DNA from: a virus
Lineage: Duplodnaviria > Caudoviricetes
Virus record (IMG/VR): IMGVR_UViG_3300046171_000014
Span: 1-61,378 of that record
Length of the DNA: 61,378 nucleotides
Reading direction: 5' to 3' (one strand)
The notes beneath the pieces are model-generated. The model worked only from the letters and a program-made list of their open reading frames with translations. It was not told where the DNA came from and did no database searches. Both the position numbers and the translations under genes were made by a program. Every line of letters begins with the position of its first letter. Within the stretch, counting starts at the first letter, position 1. Shown here piece after piece: positions 23,001 through 61,378 of the stretch.

Positions 23001-23441
23001 TTAGTTGGGTTTATTAGGCCACTCCACACTATGAGGGAATGTTTCTTGCTGCGGAACGTCTAACAAAAGGTTTCTATAATTAGTCCACTCTGCTTGCTTT
23101 TCAGATGTAAGTGCATTCCACCTTAAAGGGTTACTTACTAATGGATCAACATCCGTAATCAAATGTCCGTCTCTTTTATCCCTAATTGTTGAGATTTGTT
23201 CTTCATATAATTGTTGCTCCGCAGAAATACCAGCATAAGGCGCAATATTTGAACCCAGAAGGGTTCTAAGAGCTTCGTTGTCTATTGTGTAGTCATCGTC
23301 ATCAGACTTAACTGTATATTCTATCCATCCATATGTAGGATGATTTATCTCACAATTAAAATCTGTATGATCTTCACTAAGATATACGCCGTTTCTTACT
23401 TCTGTAATAAAGACTCTAGGCATTATGAAATCCTGATCCAT
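23001..23441 (-). CDS. Tail fibre assembly chaperone
   Basis: [16 protein letters not shown] and W..YR..LLDVPQQ..FP..V.WP motifs; follows the fibre gene. True start may be 23423. Confidence 0.75.
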
Positions 23442-37374: not shown

Positions 37375-37628
37375 TGGCTGACGGGTTAAGCGGCATAGGC
37401 AACGCGCCGTTTAATGTGGGATCTGATATCCATCAGCAAACCCAAAGCCGTGAACGTATAGAAGCTCATCTGAAAGAACAGATGGTTGAGAAAAAACACA
37501 GGGCTAACCACAGTCACCTAGAAGCGTTGGCAAAACAAAGGTTTGACTTGGGAGAAACTTATGATCGCTTTGGTCGCAAAACTAATGCAGATCGACCCCA
37601 AGGAACTAAGATAAACATAGAGGTTTAG
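37374..37628 (+). CDS. Hypothetical protein
   Basis: 84 aa, translationally coupled (TAATG); YDRFG motif. Confidence 0.6.
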   Translation: MADGLSGIGNAPFNVGSDIHQQTQSRERIEAHLKEQMVEKKHRANHSHLEALAKQRFDLGETYDRFGRKTNADRPQGTKINIEV

Positions 37629-39191
37629 TAGTATTCTACAGGTCTACGGTATGTAGGCTCATCATCCCACTCATCTGTGGGTAATCTGATGAACCCACCC
37701 TGCCTAAATCGCAATAACGCCATGACCGTAGAGTCAACAAGGTCATCGTTAGACATAAACGGGAACCCTGCCACCTCTTCTATGACCTCCTCGGCCCAAC
37801 GCTTAGCTGGTGCCCACACAAACCCGCTGGCTATGATGTCTGATACACTATTAAGGCGAGCCATCTTGTCCCCAGTACCCCTATGAGGTGTATATTCTTG
37901 TACTGGGAGGCCCATACGGCGTAATTCTTGGTACAAAGCTACGCCAGAGGACTTTTTCTCCACAATAAACGAGTCTGGCTCCCAACCTTTGTACTCTTCA
38001 AGCGCCAGACCCTTCAATTCTGGAAATTCTAAGCGTTCTTTGATGCTATTTAGCAAAATTATGTGGTGTGCGTTCTCTTCTTCGTTAAAAAACACACCCC
38101 AAGTCGTCAGCGCGGTGTAATCGGCGCGATTATTCTTCTCTGCGGCAGCATCAAGCGACATAATTATATATTCACAGTGGGGTGGGTCGTCTTTTGTCCA
38201 TATTTGCCACCATTCCCGCTTAACAATCGACGCTTCTTCAGCTGTCGGCTGCTGCTGATACTGCGAGTTCCACTGAAATGTAGGCATCGACGCCTTTGTG
38301 CGCAGCAATGCGGTCAAATCAAAGAACTCAGGCCATAACGGCTTCTGTATCGGCTTACCGTCAGAGTCCTCGCTGTCCAAAATAGCGGGAAACTCCACGA
38401 TTTCGTACTGGTCTGACTCTGGATTCTTGACCATATCTGTCGTCACACGCCCCGTGAGGTCGTCCATGTGCCAACGAGTCTGAATTATTGCAACCCTACC
38501 GCCCGGCATAAGGCGAGTACGGGCACCGAAGGTGAACCACTCGTATGCTTTTTCAAACACAGAGAAGTTTCCGTTAATAACATCCTGCTCAGAATGAGGA
38601 TCATCAACAAGCAGAAGATCAGCGCCACGTCCCGCAAGTGCAGACCCAATACCACACGCATAATATTCTCCTCCAAAGTTTGTATTCCACCGCCCCGCAG
38701 ACTTACTGTCCACCGCCAACGACACCTGCGGAAATATTTCTTTGTAGTCGTCTACCGATATCAAGTTTCTAACCTTACGCCCAAAGTCCACAGCAGAGGT
38801 CGGTAGTGTGAGACACCATCATAACCTTCTTGCCGGGGTTACGCCCCAAGAACCACGCAGGGAAAAAGATACTCACAAGCTGCGATTTACCGTGTCGCGG
38901 TGGGATATTGACACATATACGGTCTTTATCACCCTGCTCAATGTCCATCAGCATATCTGCAAGGATGCGGTGGTGCTTGCCAACCTTATAATCTGGCTGC
39001 ATCCGTTTACAAAACTCTATGAGGTCATCTTTGGCATTGTCGTTACGCTGCCTGTTCGCCAGCTCATCGACCATCTTATCAATCTCTGCGACCTCTTCAG
39101 GACTAAACTGGTCAAGGTTGTCCAGCATAGTCTGTATATCTTCTGGAGAGAAGTCTAAGTCTTTCGCAACAGTGGTAAGATCTTTAGGCAT
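37625..39191 (-). CDS. terL: Terminase large subunit, split by one extra base at ~38795
   Basis: Walker A NIPPRHGKS, Walker B LLLVDDPH, QTRWH, nuclease SLDAA/VEKK/DDLVDS. The two ORFs join as SHTTDL|AVDFGRKVRN. Start MPKDL at 39191. Confidence 0.9.
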
Positions 39192-39780
39192 CGGGAGGCC
39201 CCAGTGTATCATCCAACGATATGACCGGGGCCTCCACGACTACTGCGTCCTCTACATCAGAATCGGCTGGGTCTATAAGTTTAGCCAGTTTCCCACGTAG
39301 TTTCTCTTTGATGTCGTCTGTAGTTTGATGTGTTATTGTAACTTCAGACTTCTCTGCAAACAACCCCACATCGCTAATCTTACCAAGCAGCTCCAAGGCA
39401 CGTATACGCACCCGTGGGTCGGGGTTCTCTGTCTCCTCAATCAGTTTGTTTGTGACGAGGTGCCTCACCTGCGTAGCGCTCTCTACAACAGAATGCCCAA
39501 AATCTTTTAGGATCTTATCTGTCAGTAGGAGGGTAGCGGGTGGGGTGCGTGATATATTTTTAAGCGTAGCCTTCTTTGAAGTACGCACAGGATCGGCAGC
39601 ATATGCCATACTGATCTCCGAAGCGTTATCCCTGTCCTCTGCGGTTATGTCTATCTCTAACCCGTGGGCATGTAGATGTTTAGCGGTCTCGGCAGCAGCT
39701 TCAGCTTTGCCTGTGAGGTCTTTTGGCGGGGGCACGTCTTTGATTGGCACACCCCGTTCTGGTGTTATTTGTAATGCCAT
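39184..39780 (-). CDS. Terminase small subunit-like protein
   Basis: RIRALELLGK..DVGLF.EK motif; directly upstream of and overlapping TerL. Confidence 0.7.
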   Translation of the reverse strand: MALQITPERGVPIKDVPPPKDLTGKAEAAAETAKHLHAHGLEIDITAEDRDNASEISMAYAADPVRTSKKATLKNISRTPPATLLLTDKILKDFGHSVVESATQVRHLVTNKLIEETENPDPRVRIRALELLGKISDVGLFAEKSEVTITHQTTDDIKEKLRGKLAKLIDPADSDVEDAVVVEAPVISLDDTLGPPDA

Positions 39781-43096: not shown

Positions 43097-44203
43097 ATGT
43101 CAACTAACACAATGTATGCACTGAGCATCGAAGAAATCGCTAACGCCATTGCAGTTCAAGTTCCTCTGCCACCAGAGGACAAGACAACCATCATCGTCGA
43201 GGGCGAGATGGGCAGCGGCAAGTCATCAATCCTCAAGGTATTGGCCGAGGATCTGCCTGACCACAAGGCGATCTATTTCGACTGCACGACCAAGGCCGAT
43301 GCGGGCGACCTGATGTTGCCAAAGTTCAAGGATTTGGAAGGCAACGACTATGTTAGCTTTGCGACTAACGAGGAGCTTGGTATGCACCTCAAGGATACGC
43401 CGCTCATTATTATGATCGACGAGGCAGGCAAGAACCGCGCTATCCAGAACCCGCTCAACCGTTTGTTCCAAGAGCGAATGATCGGTATGCATGAGCTACA
43501 CCCAGAGAGCGTTGTCTTTGCGACGACTAACCTTGGGTTCGAGAATGTGGGCGACACGTTCCTGCCGCATACTTGCAACCGCGTGACATTCGTGCGGATG
43601 CGCAAGCCGAATGCGATAGAGTGGATCGAATGGGGTATCAACCACAAGCTAGATCACGTCACGCTTGCATGGGTCAAGGACAACCCGCAGGTGTTGGCAT
43701 CGTCTGACGATGTGAAAGACCCCGAGGATAACGTCTACATCAACCACCCCAAAGCCAACGGGCGTCGATCATTCTGCACAGCGAGGTCTCTGCACAAGGC
43801 GTCAAACTACATGAAGATGCGCGACAAGCTCAACGACAAGTCTCTGACCGCGTTGCTCATTGGTACGATTGGTATGCGTGGCGGCATGGATCTGATGGCT
43901 CACCTCAAGTTAGCCGATCAGCTACCTAGTTTGGAGTCGATCAAGTCCGATCCCAAAAACGCCAAGGTTCCGACCACAGCGGCAGGTATCTGTATGGTGG
44001 TCTATCGGACACTGGCAGCTATCGAGCAAGACTGGCTCAACTCTTGGATGGACTACATGGCGCGGCTAGATGCCGAGGCGCAAGGTATGTTTGCCAATGG
44101 TGTCCGTGCGCCAAGATACAGCAAGCAGGCGATGGTCATGCAGAACCGCAAGTTCACGCAGTGGGCAGCGGATAACTCGCATATGTTTTCATCAGATCAA
44201 TAA
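43097..44203 (+). CDS. MoxR/AAA+ ATPase
   Basis: Walker A GEMGSGKS, Walker B IIMIDE, sensor ATTN. Confidence 0.85.
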   Translation: MSTNTMYALSIEEIANAIAVQVPLPPEDKTTIIVEGEMGSGKSSILKVLAEDLPDHKAIYFDCTTKADAGDLMLPKFKDLEGNDYVSFATNEELGMHLKDTPLIIMIDEAGKNRAIQNPLNRLFQERMIGMHELHPESVVFATTNLGFENVGDTFLPHTCNRVTFVRMRKPNAIEWIEWGINHKLDHVTLAWVKDNPQVLASSDDVKDPEDNVYINHPKANGRRSFCTARSLHKASNYMKMRDKLNDKSLTALLIGTIGMRGGMDLMAHLKLADQLPSLESIKSDPKNAKVPTTAAGICMVVYRTLAAIEQDWLNSWMDYMARLDAEAQGMFANGVRAPRYSKQAMVMQNRKFTQWAADNSHMFSSDQ

Positions 44204-44214
44204 GGAGGATAAGA

Positions 44215-45435
44215 ATGTTACAGTTAGGCGGTAAGCTAACCGAGGAGCAGCGGCTCGAAAAAGCCGTTGTTCAAATCATGCACAAACAACCTGCCATTGG
44301 CGGGTTGGTTATGTTGGGCAAGCGTGTTGTATGTGACAAGACACGCACGGCATGTACCGATGGGCGTGACGAGTGGTATGGACGTGAGTTTGTACGTAAC
44401 CTGAACGACAAGCAGCTACGCTTCCTCGTTCTGCATGAGATGTATCACAAGATGTATCGCCACTTGATTACGTGGCGGCATCTCTGGAAGAAGTGTTCCG
44501 ACACAGCCAACCGTGCGATGGACTATGAAATCAACATCAAGATACTCGACGAGTATGGAGAGTTCGTGGAGTGGATCCCAAATGGCTGTCTCAATCAAGC
44601 CTATCGTGGTTGGGGCACAGCTAAAATCTTTGACGACATCTACGAGAAGCGCAAAGAACGCGAAGGCGGTGAAAGCGGTGACGGTGAAGGCGGCGGTGGC
44701 GATGGTGGCGGCGATGGTGACGGTGAACCATTCGACGATCACGATTGGGAAAGTGCTAAGGAGATGACCGAGGAGGAGAAGCGCGAGCTAGAGCGTGAGA
44801 TCGACGAGGCAATCCGTCAAGGCAATATCGTGGCAGGCAAAACCGGAAGCGGTGGCAGTCGTGACATGGAGGAGTTGTTGCAGCCCAAGGTAGATTGGAA
44901 AGAACCGTTCCGCGAGTTCTTCATGGCTACCTGTGCGGGTAACGACAATTCGACGTGGCGCAAGCCCAAGCGTAGGTTCATTGCGCAAAACGTGTATCTG
45001 CCATCGACGTTCAGCGAGACCATTGGCGAGTTGATACTTGGCATCGACACGTCAGGCTCGACATTCGCGCCGGGAGTGTTGCCTGCGTTTATGACCGAGA
45101 CAAAATCCATCTGCGATATGCTACGCCCCGAGCGGGTTCGCATCTTGTATTGGGACACAGCGATCTGTCGTGCTGAAGTGTACGAGCAGTACGAGTTGGA
45201 CAACATGATAAACACCACGCAGCCCGAAGGCGGTGGCGGCACGGACGTTAGCTGTGTGGCTAACTACATCACAGAGCATAAGCTCGACCCGCAAGCTATC
45301 GTGTTGCTGACCGATGGGTATCTATTCGGAGGCTGGGGCAACTGGCATCATCCGACCCTGTGGTGCGTGTTGGACAATGCGAATGCGCGTCCGACCAACG
45401 GCAAAACAATTCACATCAAATCGGAGGACATGTGA
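44215..45435 (+). CDS. Metallopeptidase-like (HExxH) plus VWA domain protein (DUF2201-like)
   Basis: TACTDG, LHEMYH, MIDAS motif IDTSGS, GGGGTD, LTDG. Confidence 0.85.
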   Translation: MLQLGGKLTEEQRLEKAVVQIMHKQPAIGGLVMLGKRVVCDKTRTACTDGRDEWYGREFVRNLNDKQLRFLVLHEMYHKMYRHLITWRHLWKKCSDTANRAMDYEINIKILDEYGEFVEWIPNGCLNQAYRGWGTAKIFDDIYEKRKEREGGESGDGEGGGGDGGGDGDGEPFDDHDWESAKEMTEEEKRELEREIDEAIRQGNIVAGKTGSGGSRDMEELLQPKVDWKEPFREFFMATCAGNDNSTWRKPKRRFIAQNVYLPSTFSETIGELILGIDTSGSTFAPGVLPAFMTETKSICDMLRPERVRILYWDTAICRAEVYEQYELDNMINTTQPEGGGGTDVSCVANYITEHKLDPQAIVLLTDGYLFGGWGNWHHPTLWCVLDNANARPTNGKTIHIKSEDM

Positions 45436-45551
45436 TGGAAGATGACGACTTAACAGATATGGTTTTTAAATACCTACAAGACATGGCGGATCGCGGTGAT
45501 GAAGCCGCGAAGCGTCTGTTGGATATGTTGCGGGAGGAACCAGATGAGTAA
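45435..45551 (+). CDS. Small acidic hypothetical protein
   Basis: MEDDDLTD..., coupled to the previous stop; GGAGG RBS. Confidence 0.45.
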   Translation: MEDDDLTDMVFKYLQDMADRGDEAAKRLLDMLREEPDE

Positions 45552-45729
45552 TATTTTTGTAGATAACCCGTTCATCCGCTGCCCCGAATGTAAAGGCGTG
45601 GGTAAAGAAATAGCTGAGCGCAACGTGATGATGAGTAACGATAATCCATACGGTTACATAGAGGAGTATGAGCGTGATTGTCGTAACTGCGATGGGCTTG
45701 GCGAAATCGAAAGGGATTATGATGATTGA
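45544..45729 (+). CDS. DnaJ-type zinc-finger small protein
   Basis: CPECKGVG...CRNCDGLG. Confidence 0.7.
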   Translation: MSNIFVDNPFIRCPECKGVGKEIAERNVMMSNDNPYGYIEEYERDCRNCDGLGEIERDYDD

Positions 45730-45964
45730 ATTTTTTACAGCTTTGATCTTGCACTACGAGTTGCAGGGCAAAGAAGTCGAGGCAGTGGTGTGGTTTGAAA
45801 CCGAAGCCGACTGCCAAGCGGTGATGCAGAATGATATTGCAGCACCATTGTACGACGAGTTGTATGACTTGTACGGCAATAACCTAATGATGTTCTGCGA
45901 AGTATCGGAGGGCGTCTCAAATATAATCAGGCCGACAGCACGGCCAACACAGGAGAATAACTAA
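45719..45964 (+). CDS. Hypothetical protein
   Basis: MIEFFTALIL...RPTARP. Confidence 0.55.
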   Translation: MMIEFFTALILHYELQGKEVEAVVWFETEADCQAVMQNDIAAPLYDELYDLYGNNLMMFCEVSEGVSNIIRPTARPTQENN

Positions 45965-46962
45965 TGGCACTTACATACTCAGCATTCCAAACTTTTGCAG
46001 AGGTAGAGCATCACTACAATGCTATCAAACCTTTGATATCGAAATGTCACACTAAAGCAGAGGATGTTCGACCTATCGGAGATCGTAAACGTAAGTGGGA
46101 GCGTATCGTTAAACTCAGCGATTACTGCTATGCGCTTCTTGACGGATATTGCTTTGGCGACCCCGTGTTTAAAACGTGGGGCACTGACAGAACCGTTACC
46201 AAAGCGGATACCGAATTTTACGCTGCTGTCGTGTGGCGCAAGCATCGTGACGGAACCACAAGCGTTAAGATACGCAATGGCACGGGGCCGTGGAACCATG
46301 TCAGTAGGTATTCGTTCCTAACACGCCACGTACCGAGAGGTATGTACTTCCTAGTGTACAACGGGAAGCAAGCTATAAACCTGACCAGTAATTACGGAGA
46401 TCACGATAGACATTTCCTAGCCAAAGGTAAAACCGTGCCAAAAGAGGTGAACCCCCATTGGAAGAAGTGGACTAATCGTAAAGACAACACGGCGTTAGCC
46501 TTCAAGCTAACTCCTGACGGGAAGTGGCTGCGTGATCCAGAAACAGGCGAGGATCTGCCGATACCGCCGCGTGTCAACAAGGCGCTGAAAGCCAAGTTCA
46601 AGGAACCGCTGAGAGAGTTCTTTGAGTGGGGCATGACAATCGCAAACATGCTGCCGCTTACGGATAACGACTACATCCGAAAGATGCGCACCGAGGCGTA
46701 TGACTATTATTCAGAAACAGAGGGCACAGGGTTCATACGATCTAGAGATACCTACAACGTGAAGAATTGTAGGAGTATCATTACAGACCCCGAACATCCG
46801 CTGCGCCTACCTCTGTTTGTAGAGTTCGCGGAAACCACAGCCGATGGGTGGTGGCAACATGCCTCTTACAAAGTGCAACAAGTAGAGACGAAGGAGGATC
46901 TGTCAGCAGTACGAAACAAATACAATAACTGGGTGAACAAGCACCTTGGTTTCAAATCATAA
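45964..46962 (+). CDS. Hypothetical protein
   Basis: 332-aa ORF with GGAG RBS. Confidence 0.75.
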   Translation: MALTYSAFQTFAEVEHHYNAIKPLISKCHTKAEDVRPIGDRKRKWERIVKLSDYCYALLDGYCFGDPVFKTWGTDRTVTKADTEFYAAVVWRKHRDGTTSVKIRNGTGPWNHVSRYSFLTRHVPRGMYFLVYNGKQAINLTSNYGDHDRHFLAKGKTVPKEVNPHWKKWTNRKDNTALAFKLTPDGKWLRDPETGEDLPIPPRVNKALKAKFKEPLREFFEWGMTIANMLPLTDNDYIRKMRTEAYDYYSETEGTGFIRSRDTYNVKNCRSIITDPEHPLRLPLFVEFAETTADGWWQHASYKVQQVETKEDLSAVRNKYNNWVNKHLGFKS

Positions 46963-46976
46963 TATAAAAATGGAGA

Positions 46977-47846
46977 ATGACTATGGGATACAATCCTTAC
47001 TTAACGTCAGAAGCGATGCAACAGACAGAGAACAATAGCTACGTGGGTAATGAGGTAGCTAGGTTCGCAGATGCTGTGGCCGCTGCACTAAAAGCAAAGT
47101 GGAGCTACAAGCGTAGGAACAGCGTTTGGATCTATCGTGAGAACGAGATTTATGCGCTAGGTTTTGTGGGTTACGGTGACTTCACCGAAAAAGCCAACGG
47201 AGATGCTGCGTACATTGTTCACAGTCGCAACATCGAAAACTGTAGGTACAACGACTACAACGCGCAGCATTACATGGCATTTGCCAAGCATTTTGAGAAA
47301 GGCCTATCTAATGCTACCCGCCACCTGCGCACCATACCGTGTCACGTAGCTGTGGAACGAGAGCTTAGAAACCTACGTAGACAGATGCGAGACATAGACG
47401 ACTACAGTTCGCGGAAGGTTAGGCAGTTGGCTAACGATGTCACCGATGGGCTAGGTCGTGGTAAAAGCTCGCCCTTGGAGCGAGAGCTTAAAAACCTTGT
47501 GAACACGGGGCATACATGGCTTGATGCAAACTTTGGTGAACAAGTCAAAACGTTCCTTAACTACAGTGGCGAGGACACGTCCTCCGGTGAGAGTATGTTT
47601 GATGTCGTGTATATCAACATCTCGCCACGCGGTACGCAGTCGGTCAACGTGTACACTAACATGGATGGTAAAGAGTGGAATTGGGAGCCAGATCCGAGCA
47701 ATCATTACGGGTGCGATGTGGATCAGCTAGACGAAGAGCTTAAACGTAAGGTGTCCACATTGCAGATGGTTGAGCAAGGTACGTTTGTTCCGAATGTTGG
47801 CTTTCATGCTCTCACAGGGAGACTGTTCTATGTCGCTCAATCCTAA
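46977..47846 (+). CDS. Hypothetical protein
   Basis: 289-aa ORF with GGAG RBS. Confidence 0.75.
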   Translation: MTMGYNPYLTSEAMQQTENNSYVGNEVARFADAVAAALKAKWSYKRRNSVWIYRENEIYALGFVGYGDFTEKANGDAAYIVHSRNIENCRYNDYNAQHYMAFAKHFEKGLSNATRHLRTIPCHVAVERELRNLRRQMRDIDDYSSRKVRQLANDVTDGLGRGKSSPLERELKNLVNTGHTWLDANFGEQVKTFLNYSGEDTSSGESMFDVVYINISPRGTQSVNVYTNMDGKEWNWEPDPSNHYGCDVDQLDEELKRKVSTLQMVEQGTFVPNVGFHALTGRLFYVAQS

Positions 47847-48210
47847 AATTATAAATCTTGACACCCCCCTTGACGAGACGGTATATCGCATTTACATACA
47901 ACCTTCATCGTTTGCTGTCGATGTAACGTGTTTAGGCACAGAGTGTTACGAGGTAGGGAACTTTGGTAAGTATGTAAGTGATTTGCCAGATTGGGTACAG
48001 GGGAAACTAGCAGTGCTTATGATGATGGGGGAAGATGACTACGGGCACATAATTGAAGGCGTAGGCTTTCGCAAAGACCGTCATGTTTTCTACGTTAGCC
48101 ATGAGGCTAACCCTGTCAGTAGAGACAAGTTGGAAATGTTGGCGTTTTCTGTGTGTCTTAAAATTCCCTTGGAGTGTACGCGCCCTTTAGAAGGAGTTGT
48201 AGATGGGTGA
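47830..48210 (+). CDS. Hypothetical protein
   Basis: LPDWVQGKLAVL...IEGVG.R motif, resembling the C-terminus of the preceding ORF. Confidence 0.6.
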   Translation: MSLNPKIINLDTPLDETVYRIYIQPSSFAVDVTCLGTECYEVGNFGKYVSDLPDWVQGKLAVLMMMGEDDYGHIIEGVGFRKDRHVFYVSHEANPVSRDKLEMLAFSVCLKIPLECTRPLEGVVDG

Positions 48211-48391
48211 CACAGAATTAAGCATGTTCCAGCAAGCACAGTTGCGTTGGCTCAAGCGACAGGTAGACAACCTGCAAGAAGAACAATGGCGCAATGATGC
48301 GAGGCCCCGTGTAAAGCAAGAACTCTTTGCAGCTCGTGAGGAGTTGGATACTTACGTGAAGAACCTTCGCAACGCAGGGGTGAAGATATGA
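48203..48391 (+). CDS. Small hypothetical protein
   Basis: 62 aa, helical; GGAG RBS. Confidence 0.6.
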   Translation: MGDTELSMFQQAQLRWLKRQVDNLQEEQWRNDARPRVKQELFAAREELDTYVKNLRNAGVKI

Positions 48392-48711
48392 CACCGGAAG
48401 CGAAGGTAAAGAAGAAGGTAGTACGCATTCTGAAAGATGCGGGTGCGTATTACTTCTACCCTGTGACGAGTGGGTACGGGCGCAGTGGTGTGCCTGATGT
48501 AGTTGCATGTCTGGAGGGTTACTTCCTTGGCATCGAATGTAAGGCGGGGAAGAACAAGCCGACCCCGCTACAACAGAAAAACTTGGACGATATAGACACA
48601 GCAGGAGGTATAGCACTGATTATTAACGAGGATAATCTGGACTTATTACAGTCCATAATACTGGGCATCAAAGTAGATGTCACGATAACAAAAAACTCAA
48701 ATGGAGAATAG
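48388..48711 (+). CDS. VRR-NUC domain nuclease (Holliday-junction resolvase-like)
   Basis: E..VK, GVPD, IECKA, PTPLQ and GG motifs. Confidence 0.85.
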   Translation: MTPEAKVKKKVVRILKDAGAYYFYPVTSGYGRSGVPDVVACLEGYFLGIECKAGKNKPTPLQQKNLDDIDTAGGIALIINEDNLDLLQSIILGIKVDVTITKNSNGE

Positions 48712-48720
48712 ATAGCCGCT

Positions 48721-49272
48721 ATGGATATCACACAAGAACAACTGAAAAAACTTTTTGGCGAAATAAAAGAAGTCGTTATGATTATGGAGCGTGTTCCGCA
48801 TAACGCAGGGGGCGCAGGGTTTGCTGTCACCACCGAGGGTGAAAGCTGCTTTGTCGGCAGGAATTATATCGAAAACAATAACCTGCAAGAAGGCGATTTC
48901 TTTACAGCGCGGGTGGCCCCTAACCAAAACAACCACAAGACAAACACTCCCTATAAGGTAGTGGGTAAGGTTGCGGTGCTAGACGGGCTAGATCCGTTTG
49001 ATGAAACACCTTCACCGAGGGTGCAGCAAGCTACGCTAGAGGACCGCATTACGGCTCTTATGCGTGACGAAGAACACTCATATCCGCACAGGGTTGGGGA
49101 GTTAGCCAGTAAGCTAACTTCTGACACCGCAGCAGTTCAGCTTGCGTTACAGCGTATGCACACTGCGGGTGAGATATGGGAAGCAAAGATAGAACGTAAG
49201 GGTACGCAAACAAAAGCGTCTTACGTTTTGTGGGCGCTCGACGACGAGTGGTTTGCACTTGACTACGAGTAA
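48721..49272 (+). CDS. Hypothetical protein, possibly OB-like plus winged-helix
   Basis: GFAV...GE.CFV N-terminus; ELASKL...VQLALQRM...GEI HTH-like C-terminus. Confidence 0.55.
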   Translation: MDITQEQLKKLFGEIKEVVMIMERVPHNAGGAGFAVTTEGESCFVGRNYIENNNLQEGDFFTARVAPNQNNHKTNTPYKVVGKVAVLDGLDPFDETPSPRVQQATLEDRITALMRDEEHSYPHRVGELASKLTSDTAAVQLALQRMHTAGEIWEAKIERKGTQTKASYVLWALDDEWFALDYE

Positions 49273-49399
49273 TACGGATCGGGGGTGCGGCTTGTACGGT
49301 CGCACCCTTGAAGAGTTCATTCACGCCATGCACGGCTTGGATGTTGTTTGGAAACCGAAGAAGAGTGGCGAAGAGCCACCGTTTTAAAGGAGAATAACT

Positions 49400-50167
49400 A
49401 TGCCTGCGAAGAAAACCACTGCGGTAGCAGAAACTTTAATAGTCCACACCGTAAAACAAGGTGTGATAAAACTGCGTATGATCGGTCAAACGCCGATGTA
49501 CTTTAACAGCATGAGCAGTAAGGCTATGCGCGACTTGCTTATCGGCGGGGGAAAGAAAACCGCTGCGGAGAAGCAAGACATTAAACACAATCCAGAACAA
49601 GAGTTTCGGGAAAGTGTGTACACTAAACCAAAGGGCGACACGTTGCTATGCTTCCCTGCGGCGGGTGTAAAAGGTTCGATGGTTACATCAGCGTTAGAAA
49701 CAGCGGGGATCAAAAGCACAAACGTAAAACGCTTGGTGTTCTTACCCGAAAGCCAAATACAGATTTGGGGTAAGCCGTACCTTAAAATGGATATCGTGCG
49801 GTCTGCCGATATAAACAAAACTCCAGATGTGCGTACCAGAGCATACCTACCAAACTGGTGTTCAGAAATAACGATTAAATATGTGACGCCTACGCTGAAC
49901 GCCAACGGCATTGTATCGCTGTTGACAAACGCAGGGCTAATCGTAGGGCTAGGAGACTTTCGCCAAGAGAAAGGGCGTGGGTCATACGGCACGTTCTCTG
50001 TAACAAGCGCGGAAGATATGGGTGAACACCAAGAGGCTTGGGATGAAATCACGAAAGAAGCGCGTGAAGTCCAAGAGTTAGCTATGGAATACCCCGAATG
50101 CGCTGACGAGCAAACGGCAGAGCTTATGAGACTTATGCAAGAAGAGCGGTTGCGTCGAGCAGCCTAA
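49400..50167 (+). CDS. Stand-alone RAMP/Cas7-like RNA-binding protein
   Basis: RAMP-like motifs in the expected order: IKLRMIGQTPM (first strand ending TP), FPAAGVKGSM (compare iPgsslKGa), C-terminal Gly-rich loop GLGDFRQEKGRGSYGTFSV. AGGAG RBS. Confidence 0.7.
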   Translation: MPAKKTTAVAETLIVHTVKQGVIKLRMIGQTPMYFNSMSSKAMRDLLIGGGKKTAAEKQDIKHNPEQEFRESVYTKPKGDTLLCFPAAGVKGSMVTSALETAGIKSTNVKRLVFLPESQIQIWGKPYLKMDIVRSADINKTPDVRTRAYLPNWCSEITIKYVTPTLNANGIVSLLTNAGLIVGLGDFRQEKGRGSYGTFSVTSAEDMGEHQEAWDEITKEAREVQELAMEYPECADEQTAELMRLMQEERLRRAA

Positions 50168-50175
50168 ACGAAGAG

Positions 50176-50191
50176 GGGCGGTTCGCCGCCC
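50176..50191 (+). other. UUCG-tetraloop hairpin at the 5' side of the array
   Basis: GGGCGG-TTCG-CCGCCC, starting 9 nt after the RAMP-like stop codon. Confidence 0.75.
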
Positions 50192-50210
50192 TAATTCACG
50201 GATAAGGTAT

Positions 50211-50558
50211 GGCGGTTCAGGCGGGGCGGGGTCTGTTAGGTTACGGCGGGGTCCGGTATGTTAGGGCGAGGCGGTTTAGGCGTGTTGTGGTGAGGTATGG
50301 CGCGGCGCGGCCAGTCGAGGCGGTCGAGGTGTGTTCGGGTAAGGCGTGGATTGGTACGGCGAGGTTAGGCGGTCGAGGTGTGTTGAGGTCTGGCGAGGCG
50401 TAGCGTGGCGAGGCGGTTCAGGTATGTTGGGGTCTGGTAAGTTGGGTTACGGCATATCAAGGCATGGCGGTCTAGGTGTGTTCCGGTGTGGCGAGGCGTA
50501 GCGTGGCGTGGCGGTTTAGGCGTGTTGTGGTTTGGCGTAGCGTGGCGCGGTGTGGTTA
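50211..50558 (+). ncRNA. Non-coding array of 7 units: GGCGGTYNA delimiter plus 7-10 GGY-NN pentamers; candidate guide-RNA array
   Basis: Units start at 50211, 50270, 50319, 50368, 50412, 50466 and 50510, with lengths 59, 49, 49, 44, 54, 44, 49 (all 9+5n). The repeat structure is seen directly; RNA function is inferred. Confidence 0.75.
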
Positions 50559-50578
50559 GCCGACTGACTAACAAAAAC

Positions 50579-50603
50579 AAAGCAGGCTGTGATGGCCTGC
50601 TTT
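50579..50603 (+). terminator. Hairpin (terminator or processing site) at the 3' side of the array
   Basis: AAAGCAGGC-TGTGATG-GCCTGCTTT. Confidence 0.65.
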
Positions 50604-50631
50604 ACAAACAAAAACTATGGAGAATAAACTT

Positions 50632-51135
50632 ATGTCTAAGTTTTCTAAAAAGACTAAGCAGCGTATCATAGATGATTACCTGCAAACTACCGGCGCAAAT
50701 ATGTTTGTGCCTTCAGAGTTCGTCGATTGGTTAGCAGGCGAGCCAGAGCATGAAGCGTACCAAGCGTTTTATGGGATTGACGATGCGGAAGCCGCGAGGC
50801 AGCATCGTATACAGTTGGCGCGGCAGATGGCGTCAGGGCTACGCATCGTGGCAAAAACGGAGACAGTAGAAAGTTCTGTTGTGTCCATAAAGGTGACAGA
50901 ATACCCCGCGTATATTTCACCTGTGTCAAAGCGGCGTGAGGGCGGGGGGTACGAACCTTTTGACCCTACCGATGAAGTTGCACAAGCTGAGCTACGCAGA
51001 CAAGCCGGTGTAAGTTTGGCGGCGTGGCTTGAAAGGTTTCGCGGTGCAGCGGAAAATTATGGAGTTGATGTAACTCCAGTTGAAGAAATCGTGCGCGTGT
51101 TGCGTGACGACAAAGATAAAGCAGTAGGAGAATAA
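50632..51135 (+). CDS. Accessory protein downstream of the RAMP-like gene and array
   Basis: Likely start MSKFSKK with GGAG RBS; H....F...DDAEAARQHR..LAR motif. Confidence 0.7.
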   Translation: MSKFSKKTKQRIIDDYLQTTGANMFVPSEFVDWLAGEPEHEAYQAFYGIDDAEAARQHRIQLARQMASGLRIVAKTETVESSVVSIKVTEYPAYISPVSKRREGGGYEPFDPTDEVAQAELRRQAGVSLAAWLERFRGAAENYGVDVTPVEEIVRVLRDDKDKAVGE

Positions 51136-51137
51136 CT

Positions 51138-51581
51138 ATGAGTGTAATTGGTAAAAAAGCAGAAAAAGTTTGGGCGTATCTTGTGAAGCACCCAAAGGCC
51201 TCTAGTGCAAAAGTTGCTAAAGCGTGTGGCTGCTCGCCATCGTATGTACATCTGCTAAAGAAAAAGATCGGCACACCGAAAGAGGTGTTGGAAGAAGTAA
51301 ATCTAACCGTGACACGCGCTGACGTCCTCGACACAGCTAAAGACTATGTGACGAAAGATCGTGCTGCGGAGCATGGTGACATGGAGACTAACTTCAGCAC
51401 CATAGCGCAATACTGGTCTGTGCATCTGGACGCGCAAATAACCCCGACAGATGTTGCGGTTATGATGAACCTGCTCAAGGTTGCGCGAATAAAGTCTAAC
51501 CCAAAGTCTAAAGATAATTGGGTCGATGGTGCAGGGTACATGGCTTGCGGCGGAGAGATTGCCAGTGCCTTACGTGCGTAA
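51138..51581 (+). CDS. HTH plus DUF6378-like protein
   Basis: VAKACGCSPSYV HTH; DR...HG...NF..IA..WS...DVA.MM..LK.AR...DNWVD.AGY.AC. Confidence 0.8.
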   Translation: MSVIGKKAEKVWAYLVKHPKASSAKVAKACGCSPSYVHLLKKKIGTPKEVLEEVNLTVTRADVLDTAKDYVTKDRAAEHGDMETNFSTIAQYWSVHLDAQITPTDVAVMMNLLKVARIKSNPKSKDNWVDGAGYMACGGEIASALRA

Positions 51582-51756
51582 GCCTAGTAAGTCCAAGAAA
51601 GCAAAGATTGGGGCGGGCGTTTATGACGCTCGCTTCAACGACAAAAAAGTAACGCTACCCAAAGCACCGTGGGAGGACGACGAAGATGGATATAGTGACG
51701 TTGGATTTCGAGACGTACTACGACAAGGAGTACAGCCTGTCGAAGATGACGACTGA
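51565..51756 (+). CDS. Possible small protein
   Basis: GTG start, basic N-terminus, VTLPKAPW; overlaps the polymerase gene. Confidence 0.35.
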   Translation: MPYVRKPSKSKKAKIGAGVYDARFNDKKVTLPKAPWEDDEDGYSDVGFRDVLRQGVQPVEDDD

Positions 51757-53530
51757 AGAATATATCCGCGATGATAGATTTGAGATTATTGGGCTAGCTG
51801 TAAAAAAGAACGATAAGCCAACACGTTGGCTACAAGGTGAGGAACTCACTACACGTTTCTTATCACACGTAGACCTCTCGTCCTGCGCTATACTTTGCCA
51901 TAACACCGCGTTTGATGGGGCGATACTAGGGTGGCGATTTGGTGTGAAGCCGAAACTGTGGCTTGATACAATGTGCATGGCCCGTGCGTTACATGGCACG
52001 GAGAAGAGTGTGAGCCTAAAGGCTGTGTCTGAACGCTACGGCGTTGGGGCCAAGGGTGATGAAGTTACCCGAGCGTTAGCCAAGCGGCTAACTGATTTTA
52101 GCGAAGAAGAAATTGCAAAGTATGCAGAGTATTCCCGCAACGATGTGGACCTGACATACGAGATTTTTAAGTTGATGTTTAGCGGAATAGTTGGAAACCA
52201 GTTCCCACAACAAGAGTTACAGCTAATAGATCGCACGTTGCGGATGTTTATCGAGCCTACGCTTGACCTAGATTTGTTCTTGTTGGAGCAACATCTGGAA
52301 GAAGTGCGTGAACGCAAGGACAAGCTGCTACGCGATGCGAACATAACCGACAAAAAAGATTTGATGTCCAACAATAAGTTTGCGGAGCTTCTTATAAGTC
52401 TTGGCGTTGAGCCGCCGAGGAAGATTAGCCCGACGACAGGTAAAGAAACATTTGCCTTTGCTAAGTCTGACGAGGCGTTCAAAGCGTTGCTAGAACATGA
52501 CGACGATAAAGTGCAGTCGTTAGTCTCTGCACGTTTGGGTACTAAAAGCACCTTAGAAGAAACACGTACCGAGAGGTTCATATCCATTGGTAAACGTGGA
52601 CTTCTTCCGGTTCCGATTAGATATTACGCAGCGCATACAGGTCGGTGGGGTGGACAGGACAAGATCAACCTGCAAAATCTTCCGAGTCGAGGGCTGAACG
52701 CGAAGAAACTCAAGAGCAGTATTATAGCGCCCGAAGGCCATACACTCATAGATGCAGACAGCGCACAGATCGAAGCTAGAGTTCTGGCGTGGCTTGCAGG
52801 GCAAAATGATTTAGTTAGCCAGTTCGCTAACGGCGAAGATGTGTACATAAAAATGGCCGCTCGTATATACGGCTGCGAAGAAGAGAGCGTTACGAAAGAT
52901 CAACGCTTTGTAGGTAAGACTACTATTCTTGGTGCAGGGTACGGCATGGGGGGCGTAAAGTTCCAAGCTCAGTTAAAAAACTTTGGCTTTGAGATACCCG
53001 TCGGAGAGGCTAAGCGGATCATAAGTATCTACCGCAGTATCAACCACAGCATAGATAGGCTGTGGAAGGACGCGCAGTTTACTCTGGAACAGATGACACA
53101 CAACGGTCCAGTTCGATTTGGTCGTAGGGGCGTTCTAAAAGTTCTACCAAAAGAGAACGCCATCCAGTTGCCATCGGGTCTTTGCATACACTACGAGGAC
53201 TTGAAGTATGAAATGACCGAAGAAGGGTCACATGAATACAGATACAAAGTACGGCGGGGCCGAAACAGAATTTACGGCGGTAAGATGGTGGAGAACGTGT
53301 GCCAAGCCATAGCTCGTTGTATCATTGGCGAGCAGTTGCTAAGTATATCCGAAAGATATAAAGTTGTCCTTACCGTACATGACTCGATTGTTTGCTGTGT
53401 GAAGGATGAAGAAGTTCCCGAAGCGCAAGCGTATGTAGAAGAATGTATGCGCAAGACACCAGATTGGGCCGCAGGCCTACCTATAGACTGCGAGAGCGGT
53501 ACAGGTAAATCGTATGGGGAATGTGAATGA
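51686..53530 (+). CDS. polA: DNA polymerase family A (3'-5' exonuclease plus polymerase)
   Basis: LDFETY, CHNTAFD, YSRNDV, TGRWGG..NLQN, DSAQIEAR, KTTILGAGYG and VHDS motifs. Confidence 0.95.
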   Translation: MDIVTLDFETYYDKEYSLSKMTTEEYIRDDRFEIIGLAVKKNDKPTRWLQGEELTTRFLSHVDLSSCAILCHNTAFDGAILGWRFGVKPKLWLDTMCMARALHGTEKSVSLKAVSERYGVGAKGDEVTRALAKRLTDFSEEEIAKYAEYSRNDVDLTYEIFKLMFSGIVGNQFPQQELQLIDRTLRMFIEPTLDLDLFLLEQHLEEVRERKDKLLRDANITDKKDLMSNNKFAELLISLGVEPPRKISPTTGKETFAFAKSDEAFKALLEHDDDKVQSLVSARLGTKSTLEETRTERFISIGKRGLLPVPIRYYAAHTGRWGGQDKINLQNLPSRGLNAKKLKSSIIAPEGHTLIDADSAQIEARVLAWLAGQNDLVSQFANGEDVYIKMAARIYGCEEESVTKDQRFVGKTTILGAGYGMGGVKFQAQLKNFGFEIPVGEAKRIISIYRSINHSIDRLWKDAQFTLEQMTHNGPVRFGRRGVLKVLPKENAIQLPSGLCIHYEDLKYEMTEEGSHEYRYKVRRGRNRIYGGKMVENVCQAIARCIIGEQLLSISERYKVVLTVHDSIVCCVKDEEVPEAQAYVEECMRKTPDWAAGLPIDCESGTGKSYGECE

Positions 53531-54201
53531 GTAAAGCAGCGCCGTGGTCGTTCAGTCGGATCAAAGCATTCGAGCAATGCCCCAAGCAGTTCTACCATGA
53601 GAAGGTGCTGAAGCAGTATCCGTTCATACAGACGGACGCTATGATCTACGGCAACCAATTCCATAAAGCCTGCGAAGACTACATCGGTAAGGGCGAGCCG
53701 CTCCCCGAGAGGTTTATGTATATTAAAGACGCTTTGGACAAACTGAACCAACGTGAAGGCGTAAAGATATGTGAGCAGCGGTTAGGAGTAACGGCTAACT
53801 TGGAACCATGCACCTTTGGCGCTAGGAACGTATGGTTTCGTGGTATTGTGGACCTTGCCATCCTTGACGAAGATAGCGGTATCGGTTGGATCATCGACTA
53901 CAAAACTGGCAAGTCTGCAAAGTACGCAGACAAAGGGCAGCTAGAGTTGATGGCGTTGGCGATCTTTGCGCACTACCCCAAGATAACAAGCATACGCGCA
54001 GGGCTACTGTTCGTGGTGGCGAACAAACTCGTAAAAGAAACGTATGAAGTTGCGGATAGAGCTAATCTTTGGGAGAAATGGTCTTCAAACTATGCTACAA
54101 TGGAGAAGGCGTTTGAAGCAGATGTGTGGAACCCCCGCCCCTCTGGATTATGCAAGCGTCATTGCCCTGTAACCGAATGCGCCCACAACGGGAGTAACTG
54201 A
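53527..54201 (+). CDS. PD-(D/E)XK (Cas4/RecB-like) exonuclease
   Basis: WSFS...CP, G..FH, RG.VD, IIDYKTGK, QL and C...CP...C motifs. Confidence 0.85.
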   Translation: MSKAAPWSFSRIKAFEQCPKQFYHEKVLKQYPFIQTDAMIYGNQFHKACEDYIGKGEPLPERFMYIKDALDKLNQREGVKICEQRLGVTANLEPCTFGARNVWFRGIVDLAILDEDSGIGWIIDYKTGKSAKYADKGQLELMALAIFAHYPKITSIRAGLLFVVANKLVKETYEVADRANLWEKWSSNYATMEKAFEADVWNPRPSGLCKRHCPVTECAHNGSN

Positions 54202-54488
54202 TGCCCTATAAAAACAAACCCCGCCCGTACAAAAAAGAGTACAAGCAGCAGAAAGAACGCGAAGAGCATAGCGACCGCATGGAGCGGCAACGTGCGCGGC
54301 GTAAGATGGATAAGACTGGCAAGGATGCCAACAAGAACGGCAAAGCCGACAAGCGCGAGGGTAAAGATATCGCGCACAAGAAACCGCTCAGCAAGGGTGG
54401 CAAAAATAAAGACGGTGTAAAAGTACAAAGCCGCAAGAAAAATAGAGCCGCTGGCGGTGCGTTAAGCCGCGGAAAGCGCAAGAAGTAA
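54201..54488 (+). CDS. Basic HNH-like protein
   Basis: GKDIAHKKPLSKGG.N...NR degenerate HNH motif. Confidence 0.6.
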   Translation: MPYKNKPRPYKKEYKQQKEREEHSDRMERQRARRKMDKTGKDANKNGKADKREGKDIAHKKPLSKGGKNKDGVKVQSRKKNRAAGGALSRGKRKK

Positions 54489-54500
54489 TTGGAGAATAAC

Positions 54501-56036
54501 ATGCAGATTGTACAGGATAAAGCCATCCTGCTTACACTGCCTAACCCAAAGCAAATCACAACAGTGATTGCGAAGAGTAAGGAGTTGTCGATGAATGAAG
54601 TCGTCGTGAATTGGGGTATCGACGAGGCCCACAAGTTGAAAGCATTGAATATAAAGGTGCCTTCACCGATTGAGAAACGCTATTCGTGGGTGGGTAAGTA
54701 CAAGCCTTATCAACATCAGAAAGACACGGCGGCGTTTCTTACCATGAACAAGCGAGGCTTCTGCTTCAATGAGCAGGGCACAGGCAAAACAGCCAGTGCG
54801 ATATGGGCCGCAGACTTCTTGATGAAGCAAGGTATCATACGTCGAGTCCTTGTCGTGTGCCCTCTATCTATCATGGACAGCGCATGGCGTGAGGATTTGT
54901 TTAGTTTTGCTATGCATCGCACCGTGGACGTTGCGCATGGCGCGAAAGAGAAACGCAAAAAGATAATAAACAGCGGGGCCGATTTCGTCATTATAAACTA
55001 TGACGGTGTTGAGGTTGTGGCAGATGCTATCGCCAAGGGTGGGTTTGACCTAATCATCATAGACGAGGCAACGCACTACAAGAACGCGCAGACCAAGCGG
55101 TGGAAAACGCTCAAGAAGCTTGTCAAAGATGATACATGGCTATGGCTTATGACAGGTACTCCTGCTGCGCAGTCGCCGCTAGATGCCTACGGCCTTGCCA
55201 AGCTAGTGAACCCACAGAGCGTACCTAGTTTCTTTAGCTCGTTCCGCGATCAGATTATGGTAAAGGTTACTCAGTTTAAATGGATGCCGAAAGAGAATGC
55301 CAAGAGTACGGTATTCCGTGCGCTTCAACCTGCGATACGCTTCACCAAAGAAGAGTGTTTGGACCTGCCTGACATGGTGTACACTAAACGCAGGGTAGAG
55401 ATGACCAAACAGCAGCAGACATTCTACGACCTGCTGCGCAAGCGTATGGTCATGCAAGTTGCCGGTGAGAGTGTAACAGCGGTGAACGCTGCGGTGAACC
55501 TAAACAAACTGCTACAGATATCGGCAGGAGCTATATACACCGACGAAGGTGATACGGTGCAGTTCGATATCTCCAACAGGTACAAGGTGCTGAAAGAGGT
55601 GATAGACGAATGCTCGCAAAAAGTGCTTGTGTTTGTACCGTTCCGACACACCATAGACTTGTTAGCCGGTAAGCTAACTAAAGACGGCATAACGTCCGCT
55701 ATCATACGAGGAGATGTAGCTGCGCATAAACGCACTGAGATATTCTCGCAGTTCCAAAGCGAGAAAGACCCCAAGGTCTTGCTTATACAACCCCAAGCCG
55801 CAGCACACGGGGTTACACTTACAGCAGCAAATACTGTTGTGTGGTGGGGGCCGACACCCTCGTTGGAAACTTACGCACAAGCAAATGCTAGGGTTCACAG
55901 ATCGGGGCAGAAGCATAAATGCACAGTGATACAGCTTGCGGGTTCGTTTGTTGAGAACCGTATATACAGGCTGTTGGACGACAAGATAAGTACGCACACA
56001 GAGATTATTGATTTGTATAAAGAAGTGCTTGACTAG
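54501..56036 (+). CDS. SNF2-family helicase
   Basis: EQGTGKT, IIIDEA, MTGTP, HGVTLT and QANARVHRSGQ motifs. Confidence 0.9.
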   Translation: MQIVQDKAILLTLPNPKQITTVIAKSKELSMNEVVVNWGIDEAHKLKALNIKVPSPIEKRYSWVGKYKPYQHQKDTAAFLTMNKRGFCFNEQGTGKTASAIWAADFLMKQGIIRRVLVVCPLSIMDSAWREDLFSFAMHRTVDVAHGAKEKRKKIINSGADFVIINYDGVEVVADAIAKGGFDLIIIDEATHYKNAQTKRWKTLKKLVKDDTWLWLMTGTPAAQSPLDAYGLAKLVNPQSVPSFFSSFRDQIMVKVTQFKWMPKENAKSTVFRALQPAIRFTKEECLDLPDMVYTKRRVEMTKQQQTFYDLLRKRMVMQVAGESVTAVNAAVNLNKLLQISAGAIYTDEGDTVQFDISNRYKVLKEVIDECSQKVLVFVPFRHTIDLLAGKLTKDGITSAIIRGDVAAHKRTEIFSQFQSEKDPKVLLIQPQAAAHGVTLTAANTVVWWGPTPSLETYAQANARVHRSGQKHKCTVIQLAGSFVENRIYRLLDDKISTHTEIIDLYKEVLD

Positions 56037-60706: not shown

Positions 60707-60735
60707 GGCCTCCACTATATGTGGGGGCCTTTTTT
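60707..60735 (+). terminator. Terminator between the converging genome arms
   Basis: GGCCTCCAC-TATAT-GTGGGGGCC followed by a T run. Confidence 0.7.
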
Positions 60736-61378
60736 ACATAAACAGAGACGAGTTTTTATCGAACTGCTGTGCATACAGCATATACTCGTCACGGCGTTTC
60801 GGGCTGAACGTAACCCCATGATACCGAGACTGCTTGCCAGAGATACGGGTCTTACGTGATCGCCGTATAGTCTCTGCTGTAATCGGATCGTTGGGATGTT
60901 CCTGATTATACTTGGCGATCTTACGCAGCACCGACGAGTTATCTGCACCGTCAAAGTAGTTGCGGAAGTACATGTCCAACAACTTCTTCTTACGACGAGA
61001 AGTCGCACGGTCTGCGCCTTTCAGCACCGCGTTCTCTTCAAGCTGCCTAGAATACTCTGCGGGTGCGAAGCCTAAAGTCTGCAACCCAACATGCGCAGGG
61101 TGTAGATCCTCAATGATCTTGTCACCGCCAACAGTCTGTACGCCTTCGGTAGCGTATCGCACCGCCTTCATACCGTTCTTGATTGCTGCTGGAGACATAG
61201 CCTCAAAGCCCCGATAGAACTCACCCTCACCGAATAGTTTAAACCCACGCTCCGTTTGCGCAAAGATACCGACCAGCGGCCCACCACCATACTCTAGCGC
61301 TTGGTACAGCAGCGGTGTATCACTTCGTATAAATGTGTCTCTAAACAGAAGCTCGCCTAGCCCAACACGGCTGGCGAA
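60734..61378 (-). CDS. C-terminal 214 aa of the giant polyvalent protein, joining 1..5724
   Basis: The frame is open from 61378 (FASRVGLGELLFRD) through the 154-aa track ORF to the stop at 60734, and is in frame with the 5724..1 segment. Confidence 0.85.
   Translation of the reverse strand, partial: FASRVGLGELLFRDTFIRSDTPLLYQALEYGGGPLVGIFAQTERGFKLFGEGEFYRGFEAMSPAAIKNGMKAVRYATEGVQTVGGDKIIEDLHPAHVGLQTLGFAPAEYSRQLEENAVLKGADRATSRRKKKLLDMYFRNYFDGADNSSVLRKIAKYNQEHPNDPITAETIRRSRKTRISGKQSRYHGVTFSPKRRDEYMLYAQQFDKNSSLFM

Follow-up and report, generated by a model that had tools for sequence, protein, structure and literature searches.

The gene organisation of the locus

The window analysed here is the whole of an IMG/VR virus record (IMGVR_UViG_3300046171_000014; Caudoviricetes; 61,378 bp, estimated completeness 99%), which represents the complete genome, of about 61 kb, of a marine phage that is probably lytic. 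Within the replication module of that phage lie a gene for a Cas7-like protein of the RAMP superfamily, a G-rich non-coding array with a five-nucleotide period and a second, smaller gene (Table 1). It is probable that these three parts form a locus of the VIPR (Viral Interference Programmable Repeat) kind, which was described in preprints of 2026 (10.64898/2026.04.26.720920, also PMC13142463; 10.64898/2026.04.26.720927; 10.64898/2026.10.15.759431). According to those preprints and a further one (10.64898/2026.10.21.760802), Vipr is a minimal RAMP protein that assembles on a vrRNA of 9–16 YNNGG repeats, with one protomer per repeat. The NN letters of the vrRNA pair with DNA, every third base being skipped, and binding silences transcription. 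Seven types of VIPR and six classes of vap (VIPR accessory gene) have been defined in the same four preprints.

Table 1. Features of the vipr locus and of its neighbourhood, in window coordinates
Feature	Position	Strand	Basis or remarks
vipr, 255-aa Cas7-like RAMP protein	49400..50167	+	Open reading frame, profile, fold matches
Hairpin, 7 bp, UUCG tetraloop, between vipr and array	50175..50192	+	-16.9 kcal/mol, z -2.45
Predicted vrRNA array, seven modules, 348 nt, G-rich, non-coding	50211..50558	+	5-periodicity
Module 1	50211..50269	+	GGCG + 11 pentamers; precisely absent from RNA-library contigs (joint 50210->50270)
Module 2	50270..50318	+	GGCG + 9 pentamers
Module 3	50319..50367	+	GGCG + 9 pentamers
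Module 4	50368..50411	+	GGCG + 8 pentamers
Module 5	50412..50465	+	GGCG + 10 pentamers; NN letters, read with one base skipped, match HIGLKGTMN codons of large serine recombinase genes
Module 6	50466..50509	+	GGCG + 8 pentamers
Module 7 (last)	50510..50558	+	GGCG + 9 pentamers; continues into trailer conserved in close relatives
Small hairpin, 5 bp	50555..50572	+	Folding
Array-closing hairpin, 10 bp	50579..50603	+	z -4.42; 0/200 shuffles fold as well
Candidate vap, 167 aa, mostly helical	50632..51135	+	Linkage to vipr and array
Holliday-junction-resolvase-like gene	48388..48711		Near vipr locus
DNA polymerase	51686..53530		Near vipr locus; helicase and primase also in neighbourhood

A sequence-only reading of this DNA had described an open reading frame (ORF) of 255 aa with three RAMP hallmarks in order, followed by a UUCG hairpin, an array of about 350 nt, a second hairpin and an ORF of 167 aa, and all of these were recovered where that reading had placed them. 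The three motifs of the larger protein, referred to as Vipr, are IGQTP (T31 P32), FPAAGVKG (P86..K91 G92) and GLGDFRQEKGRGSYGTF (G183..F199). In an alignment with 27 relatives, residues P32, F85, P86, G89, K91, G183, G185, D186, R188, G192 and G197 are invariant, and R147 is likewise invariant.

A profile built from those 27 relatives (A1) was compared with the sequences of PDB chains. The top match was the entry 'SUSP1 Vipr protein' (36pp), with an E value of 3.3e-4; the single Vipr sequence, without the profile, reached only 0.52. The genome of Escherichia phage SUSP1 (NC_028808.2, an accession taken from the text of 10.64898/2026.10.15.759431) contains an ORF of 195 aa (L045:28474-29061) that was taken as vipr from the layout of the locus, and hhalign of A1 against this ORF gave a probability of 95.8% and an E value of 7.6e-9 over 52 columns. 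Cryo-electron microscopy has shown that R138, D177, W178 and R179 of SUSP1 Vipr grip the GGY letters of the guide (10.64898/2026.04.26.720927), and the alignment pairs them with R147, D186, F187 and R188 of the window protein. As the N-terminal halves of the two proteins did not align, SUSP1 residues H17, K33, R39 and K82 have no mapped equivalents. As judged by profile alignment, the window protein is a homologue of SUSP1 Vipr in which the predicted GGY-contacting residues are kept.

The AlphaFold (AF2) model of Vipr has a predicted local distance difference test score (pLDDT) of 67.7 and a predicted template modelling score (pTM) of 0.66. When it was searched with Foldseek, nearly all of the 50 rows listed were CRISPR effector complexes with subunits of the Csm3, Cas7 or gRAMP type (best E 9.8e-4, probability 0.97). 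Structural alignment to Csm3 and Cas7 with VIA gave Z scores of 5.0–5.6, which fall in a range rated common or middling by that tool, with 124–152 residues aligned (about 145). Csm3 and Cas7, the structures against which the earlier reading had proposed that its RAMP assignment be checked, are therefore the best matches of a moderate model. Low model confidence in helix 1 and the glycine-rich loop limits support for the predicted RAMP fold (RRM core, thumb and glycine-rich loop) to a moderate level. Residues ~205–255 form three confidently modelled helices, a C-terminal extension of ~50 aa with no counterpart in the 195-aa SUSP1 protein. Vipr matches PHROG 4652 (function unknown; 2.9e-11), and it gave zero matches to Pfam, NCBIfam and PADLOC, the Cas7 models of Pfam and PADLOC included. 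About 1110 relatives were found at E <= 0.001 among 5.8 billion proteins, many of them from ocean surveys. A protein search of the phage GenBank collection returned only hypothetical proteins of 25–30% identity, from five Gordonia phage records and one Pseudomonas phage, and a DNA search of that collection with positions 44000..56000 returned nothing.

The array downstream of vipr is marked by a same-letter frequency of 0.49 at lag 5, against ~0.28 at neighbouring lags, and nowhere else in the window does a 5-periodic stretch exceed ~160 nt. It is composed of seven modules, each a 4-nt GGCG followed by 8–11 pentamers of the form G(G/T)YNN. Statistics were compiled from 335 modules bounded by two junctions, 208 of them unique, taken from the window and 44 related viral loci. 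Among the unique modules the information content is ~1.5–1.9 bits at position 1 of the unit, 0.6–1.1 at position 2 and 0.7–1.0 at position 3, and falls to 0–0.2 bits at the internal NN positions (4 and 5). The final unit ahead of a junction is partly constrained at NN (0.22 and 0.54 bits). Modules in this set hold 6–16 units, with a mode of 8–10.

Single modules fold no better than shuffled sequence (z -1.06 and -0.07), as is expected of guide regions, and a search of positions 49000..51500 against Rfam at E <= 1 gave no family. The UUCG hairpin is part of a leader conserved among the close relatives L002–L011. The hairpin that closes the array has an A-run upstream and TTT downstream, and may for that reason serve to terminate the transcript or to stabilise its 3′ end; a terminator scan calls it on the minus strand only.

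The sequence-only reading implied that homologues of vipr should adjoin pentamer arrays. A long 5-periodic stretch was found beside vipr in all 44 viral loci and in 28 of 31 loci from bacterial genomes or metagenome-assembled genomes (MAGs), mostly of Alphaproteobacteria and with Vipr identities of 35–72%. The remaining three contigs stop within ~290 nt of vipr; among relatives with enough flanking DNA, then, the array is present in 72 of 72. A homologue of the accessory gene adjoins vipr and array in 42 of the 44 viral loci, the other two contigs stopping inside the array, and was detected by tblastn in 20 of the 31 genome loci. Distant relatives have the accessory gene between vipr and the array, with GGCA as the unit at module junctions. 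Since the linkage holds across loci in which the order has changed, vipr, the array and the accessory gene travel together in these comparisons irrespective of order. A single contig of a Sphingobium MAG (JAMHVU010000035.1) encodes two homologues of Vipr (L052 and L053), ~34 kb from each other and both accompanied by a separate array and accessory gene.

The start of the accessory ORF is placed at the ATG at 50632, with GGAG 9 nt upstream, and not at 50617; its relatives start at the equivalent Met. The protein has an invariant GGGY..FD motif. It has zero matches in Pfam, NCBIfam and PADLOC, nothing significant among PDB sequences (best E 0.46), no fold match with Foldseek (best E 0.84) and, in a wide VIA search, a best Z of 4.2 to small helical DNA-binding domains, which is below a meaningful level. 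In the ESM Atlas it falls only in unnamed clusters. It is a protein without a detectable known fold. Joint structure prediction of Vipr with the accessory protein gave a score of 0.00, which counts neither way.

Phages in which Vipr is 98–100% identical have the leader and trailer in common but carry 5–10 modules of different content, and certain modules recur at different places in the arrays of these near-identical phages. Contigs from four RNA-library runs (two studies) depart from the window in units of whole modules: their joints coincide with module junctions (50210->50270, 50216->50319 and 50216->50412), and at 50397/50403 there is an insertion of 186 letters.

A predicted target for guide 5

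For the target searches, guide 5 was read as NN-x-NN-x, following the published one-base-skip rule. In three genomes reached via related loci, four matches with 3 mismatches were found, all in one genome, and the one that was examined lies inside an ORF for a large serine recombinase. The search was extended to 401 genomes of the family Rhodobacteraceae, to which the Aliishimia MAG belongs. At <=2 mismatches there were 21 matches in 19 genomes, as against 1 for a reversed control, and on inspection 18 of the 21 read CAY ATY GGN CTN AAR GGN ACN ATG.

Among IMG/VR viral contigs the full 10-unit pattern gave 0 matches; the last unit mismatches the target. When that unit was dropped (9 of 10 units, 18 of 18 letters), exact matches were obtained in 16 viral contigs and none with the reversed pattern. 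It is apparent that all 16 lie in frame at the peptide LHIGLKGTMNA, within open frames of 502–661 aa, and that the skipped base is in each case the third position of a codon. Skips of 0, 2 or 3 bases gave zero exact matches. As guide 5 has the sense of the coding strand of the recombinase gene, its pairing partner would be the template strand of the DNA rather than the mRNA.

The target ORFs (n = 33) contain the Resolvase domain in 32 cases, Recombinase in 31 and Zn_ribbon_recom in 30, and the recombinases are 37–70% identical to the reference sequence of the alignment. From the match table, 10 of the 16 viral matches are within ~2.4 kb of a contig end. Prophage integrases often sit near such ends. 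In the genomes, the genes near the target recombinases include a type IV secretion coupling protein, tyrosine integrases and insertion sequence (IS) elements. At L105 14398..18609, in a Rhodobacteraceae-family genome, the targeted serine recombinase is clustered with three tyrosine integrases and directly adjoins a Cas9 and Cas1 pair.

Guide 5 is carried by 8 of 45 arrays, and shorter copies are found at L025, L027 and L038. Two further arrays (L023 and L024) carry a different guide, which matches the same recombinase site but shifted four codons downstream.

The remaining guides were treated more broadly. All 208 unique guides were compared with the phage's own genome, the array being masked, and the distribution of mismatches was the same for skips of 0–3 bases and for shuffled guides. 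Longer guides (>= 7 units after the last was dropped) matched the non-array parts of 75 related loci at a level equal to shuffles. In a hash search of the target loci with 16-letter reads, GC-rich chance matches predominated, and nothing was gained beyond the recombinase key. The comparisons for guides 4, 6 and 7 covered the phage genome and the related loci; within the searches made, a target fitting the skip rule was found for guide 5 only. Guide 6 of the window matches 13 of 14 letters near position 932 of L040, in the accessory gene of a distant VIPR clade (46% identical). This is probably a chance match, because shuffled guides reach an equal level.

Relationship to known systems and alternative explanations

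The locus resembles the SUSP1 VIPR, the type II exemplar, in several respects. Both have a small, stand-alone phage RAMP protein in which equivalents of the thumb arginine and of the D-aromatic-R of the glycine-rich loop are conserved, guides of GGY-like triplets with hypervariable NN, and two genes, one of them accessory, with no nuclease. In both, a natural target fits the one-base-skip rule, the wobble bases of codons being those skipped, and this target is the recombinase of a mobile element, although for the window both points are predicted from sequence. The two differ in that the window Vipr is 255 aa long rather than 195, with an additional C-terminal helical region and similarity over 52 columns only. 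In SUSP1 the guides are four separate vrRNAs, each ~100 nt long and provided with a pseudoknot tail and an upstream sequence of its own, whereas the window has seven abutting, tail-less guides, with structured elements only at the ends of the array and without the conserved 3′ tail on each vrRNA that is a feature of type II. The window array, moreover, is flanked by vipr on one side and the accessory gene on the other, and its units have G or T as second letter. The accessory protein shows no sequence relationship to the presumed Vap1 (the SUSP1 ORF downstream of vipr, so taken from its position), and the host is marine and probably an alphaproteobacterium. With neither a recognisable vap1 gene nor discrete tailed vrRNAs, the locus lacks these type II features.

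A closer counterpart is provided by the 'staggered vrRNA arrays' of the legend to Fig. S18 in 10.64898/2026.04.26.720920, in which tail-less vrRNAs arise from positions overlapping by 1 nt. The 4-nt GGCG of the window amounts to two pentamer registers offset by one base, a likeness that extends as far as that legend describes such arrays. Small-RNA sequencing confirmed the ribozyme-interspersed and single-vrRNA architectures, and on staggered arrays the main text of that preprint is silent.

The closest solved folds are those of the class 1 Cas7 family (Csm3, Cmr4 and type VII Cas7), which match Vipr over residues ~17–206 and share the RRM core, thumb and glycine-rich loop; by analogy, Vipr would also oligomerise along a guide RNA with periodic flipping of bases. 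It differs from them in its 5-nt step and gapped, 2-of-3 reading of the target, as against the 6-nt Cas7 step, and sequence identity is 8–16%. A class 1 CRISPR-Cas locus would comprise a repeat-spacer array, cas1/cas2 and effector genes, and that combination is absent here. PADLOC found no cas1, cas2, cas3 or cas10 among the 80 ORFs of the window, and a repeat search of the window found no CRISPR-like repeat family, in agreement with the sequence-only reading. What is present is a minimal locus in a viral genome, with a candidate vap gene and neither a CRISPR array nor further cas genes.

That reading had also proposed a RAMP protein bound to GGY-NN RNA, with NN as a non-contiguous guide and silencing without a nuclease. 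This is the published VIPR mechanism, and the sequence features expected of it are present. The likeness to VIPR that it had noted has likewise been substantiated by the homology to SUSP1 Vipr, the G-(G/T)-Y triplets with hypervariable NN, the accessory gene and a target obeying the skip rule. Its suggestion of novelty is not supported, because the kind is already in print (10.64898/2026.04.26.720920); the window locus adds a member. The probability that the locus is a VIPR of a probably lytic phage, with vipr, a 'staggered' array of seven guides and an accessory gene, is put at about 0.88 on the sequence comparisons.

Several observations weigh against that reading or against the target proposed within it. 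The homology between the window and SUSP1 proteins spans only 52 C-terminal columns, the model of Vipr is moderate (pLDDT below 50 in helix 1 and the glycine-rich loop), its VIA Z scores of 5–5.6 are middling, and the accessory protein is not similar to the presumed Vap1 of SUSP1 (hhalign probability 0.14%). The RNA-library evidence consists of contigs, which are uninformative on transcription, ends and strand, and such libraries may contain DNA. A convincing target was obtained for only one of the seven guides, and even there the last unit mismatches. For guide 1, a search of 151 genomes returned a single match, with 2 mismatches, roughly as chance would give, and guides 2 and 3 (16 letters each) gave 6 and 28 exact matches in viral contigs, spread over unrelated genes without convergence. 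The matches of guide 5, finally, are homologous copies of one motif and therefore represent few independent events.

The last of these points would fit a genuine VIPR locus in which the agreement of guide 5 with serine recombinases is a coincidence, produced by a common and conserved peptide motif, the real targets lying elsewhere. A calculated ~0.04 chance events are expected for 18 fixed letters in 401 genomes, which is small yet not negligible over seven guides and several databases, and the mismatching tenth unit and the single successful guide point the same way. This alternative is nevertheless regarded as unlikely. The reversed controls gave 0 against 16 and 1 against 21, all 16 viral matches placed the skip at a third codon position, and other skip lengths failed. 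The shifted guide of L023 and L024 reaches the same site independently, shorter versions of guide 5 are kept in phages whose Vipr is only ~78–81% identical, and the class of target parallels that of SUSP1, whose VIPR silences the excision recombinase of a satellite (10.64898/2026.10.15.759431).

Two explanations that dispense with VIPR altogether were also weighed. The pentamers could constitute an element acting at the DNA level, such as origin iterons, a G-rich structure-forming tract or a recombination hotspot, the RAMP-like protein having some other nucleic-acid role. The position of the locus amid replication and recombination genes (Holliday-junction-resolvase-like, DNA polymerase, helicase and primase) would suit such an element, and transcription of the array is a prediction. 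It would leave unexplained, however, why three conserved and two free letters reproduce the published vrRNA code, why the GGY-binding residues of SUSP1 Vipr are conserved, why the array stays with vipr despite changed gene order and why one guide has a target that obeys the code; it is accordingly considered very improbable. Least probable of all is a degenerate or miniature class 1 CRISPR-Cas remnant, with a solo Cas7 and a decayed array. Csm3 and Cas7 are indeed the closest solved folds, but the cas genes and repeat-spacer array are lacking, the period is 5 nt and not ~60–70, the Cas7 models of Pfam and PADLOC miss Vipr, and its ~1110 homologues have the same minimal locus in all those examined. 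A VIPR locus is thus the explanation preferred here.

Genomic setting and significance

Portal, terminase, capsid and tail genes are encoded on the minus strand of the phage, and the replication module on the plus strand. A Cas4-like PD-(D/E)XK exonuclease (53527..54201, +; PADLOC Cas4 7.5e-8, PHROG exonuclease) adjoins the DNA polymerase gene; it is an ordinary phage replication nuclease and lies outside the VIPR locus. The ORF for the terminase large subunit is only 294 aa long and aligns with the C-terminal part of the PHROG profile (positions 441–708 of 760). The gene may be split, since the ATPase part may be located in a separate upstream ORF (regions 37625..38509 and 38775..39780, both minus). 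A tail-fibre gene (23423..24769, minus) contains, at 23690..24190, a long run of 9-nt repeats encoding collagen-like Gly-X-Y, with 117-nt super-repeats. Two proteins with 2-oxoglutarate (2OG)-Fe(II) oxygenase domains are encoded within the structural gene block (19061..20293 and 22408..22965, both minus). At 60734..61198 (minus), an ORF of 154 aa matches the very C-terminal end of the profile for giant DarB-like antirestriction proteins (PHROG 10089, positions 4492–4635 of 4647).

If the published mechanism applies, the array would be transcribed together with vipr or afterwards, and one Vipr protomer would occupy each 5-nt unit, sequestering G-(G/T)-Y and displaying the two variable letters. 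The resulting filament would pair with double-stranded DNA bearing the same dinucleotides spaced by one skipped base, and transcription would be blocked there. Each 4-nt GGCG would shift the pentamer register by one base and therefore mark the boundary at which one guide ends and the next begins. In a Rhodobacteraceae-like host, integrative elements, resident or competing (temperate phages, satellites and islands resembling integrative and conjugative elements, ICEs), could in this way have their integrase or excision recombinase silenced by the phage, a role that would parallel the silencing of a satellite's excision recombinase by the SUSP1 VIPR.

A wider proposal is offered tentatively, at somewhat less than even odds. 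Marine phages of a widespread clade, whose hosts are probably alphaproteobacteria, may possess tail-less, 'staggered' VIPR arrays that swap whole guide cassettes at 4-nt junctions, with an accessory family of no known fold represented by the 167-aa partner. At least one conserved cassette would guide at the level of a peptide motif. Because guide 5 reads only codon positions 1 and 2 of the invariant HIGLKGTM, it could silence a whole family of diverged large serine recombinases in prophages, satellites and ICE-like islands.

VIPR has been known only since 2026, and what is understood of its biology comes from one E. coli phage and one Pseudomonas prophage. To these the present locus adds a large marine clade of Vipr homologues, a clean natural staggered array in which the turnover of cassettes is visible between near-identical phages, and a concrete, if predicted, natural target in a catalytic-domain motif of large serine recombinases. 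This target suggests that silencing the enzyme by which a rival integrates or excises is a recurrent VIPR strategy and, if the proposal is correct, a lytic phage could immobilise many different resident elements with a single guide.

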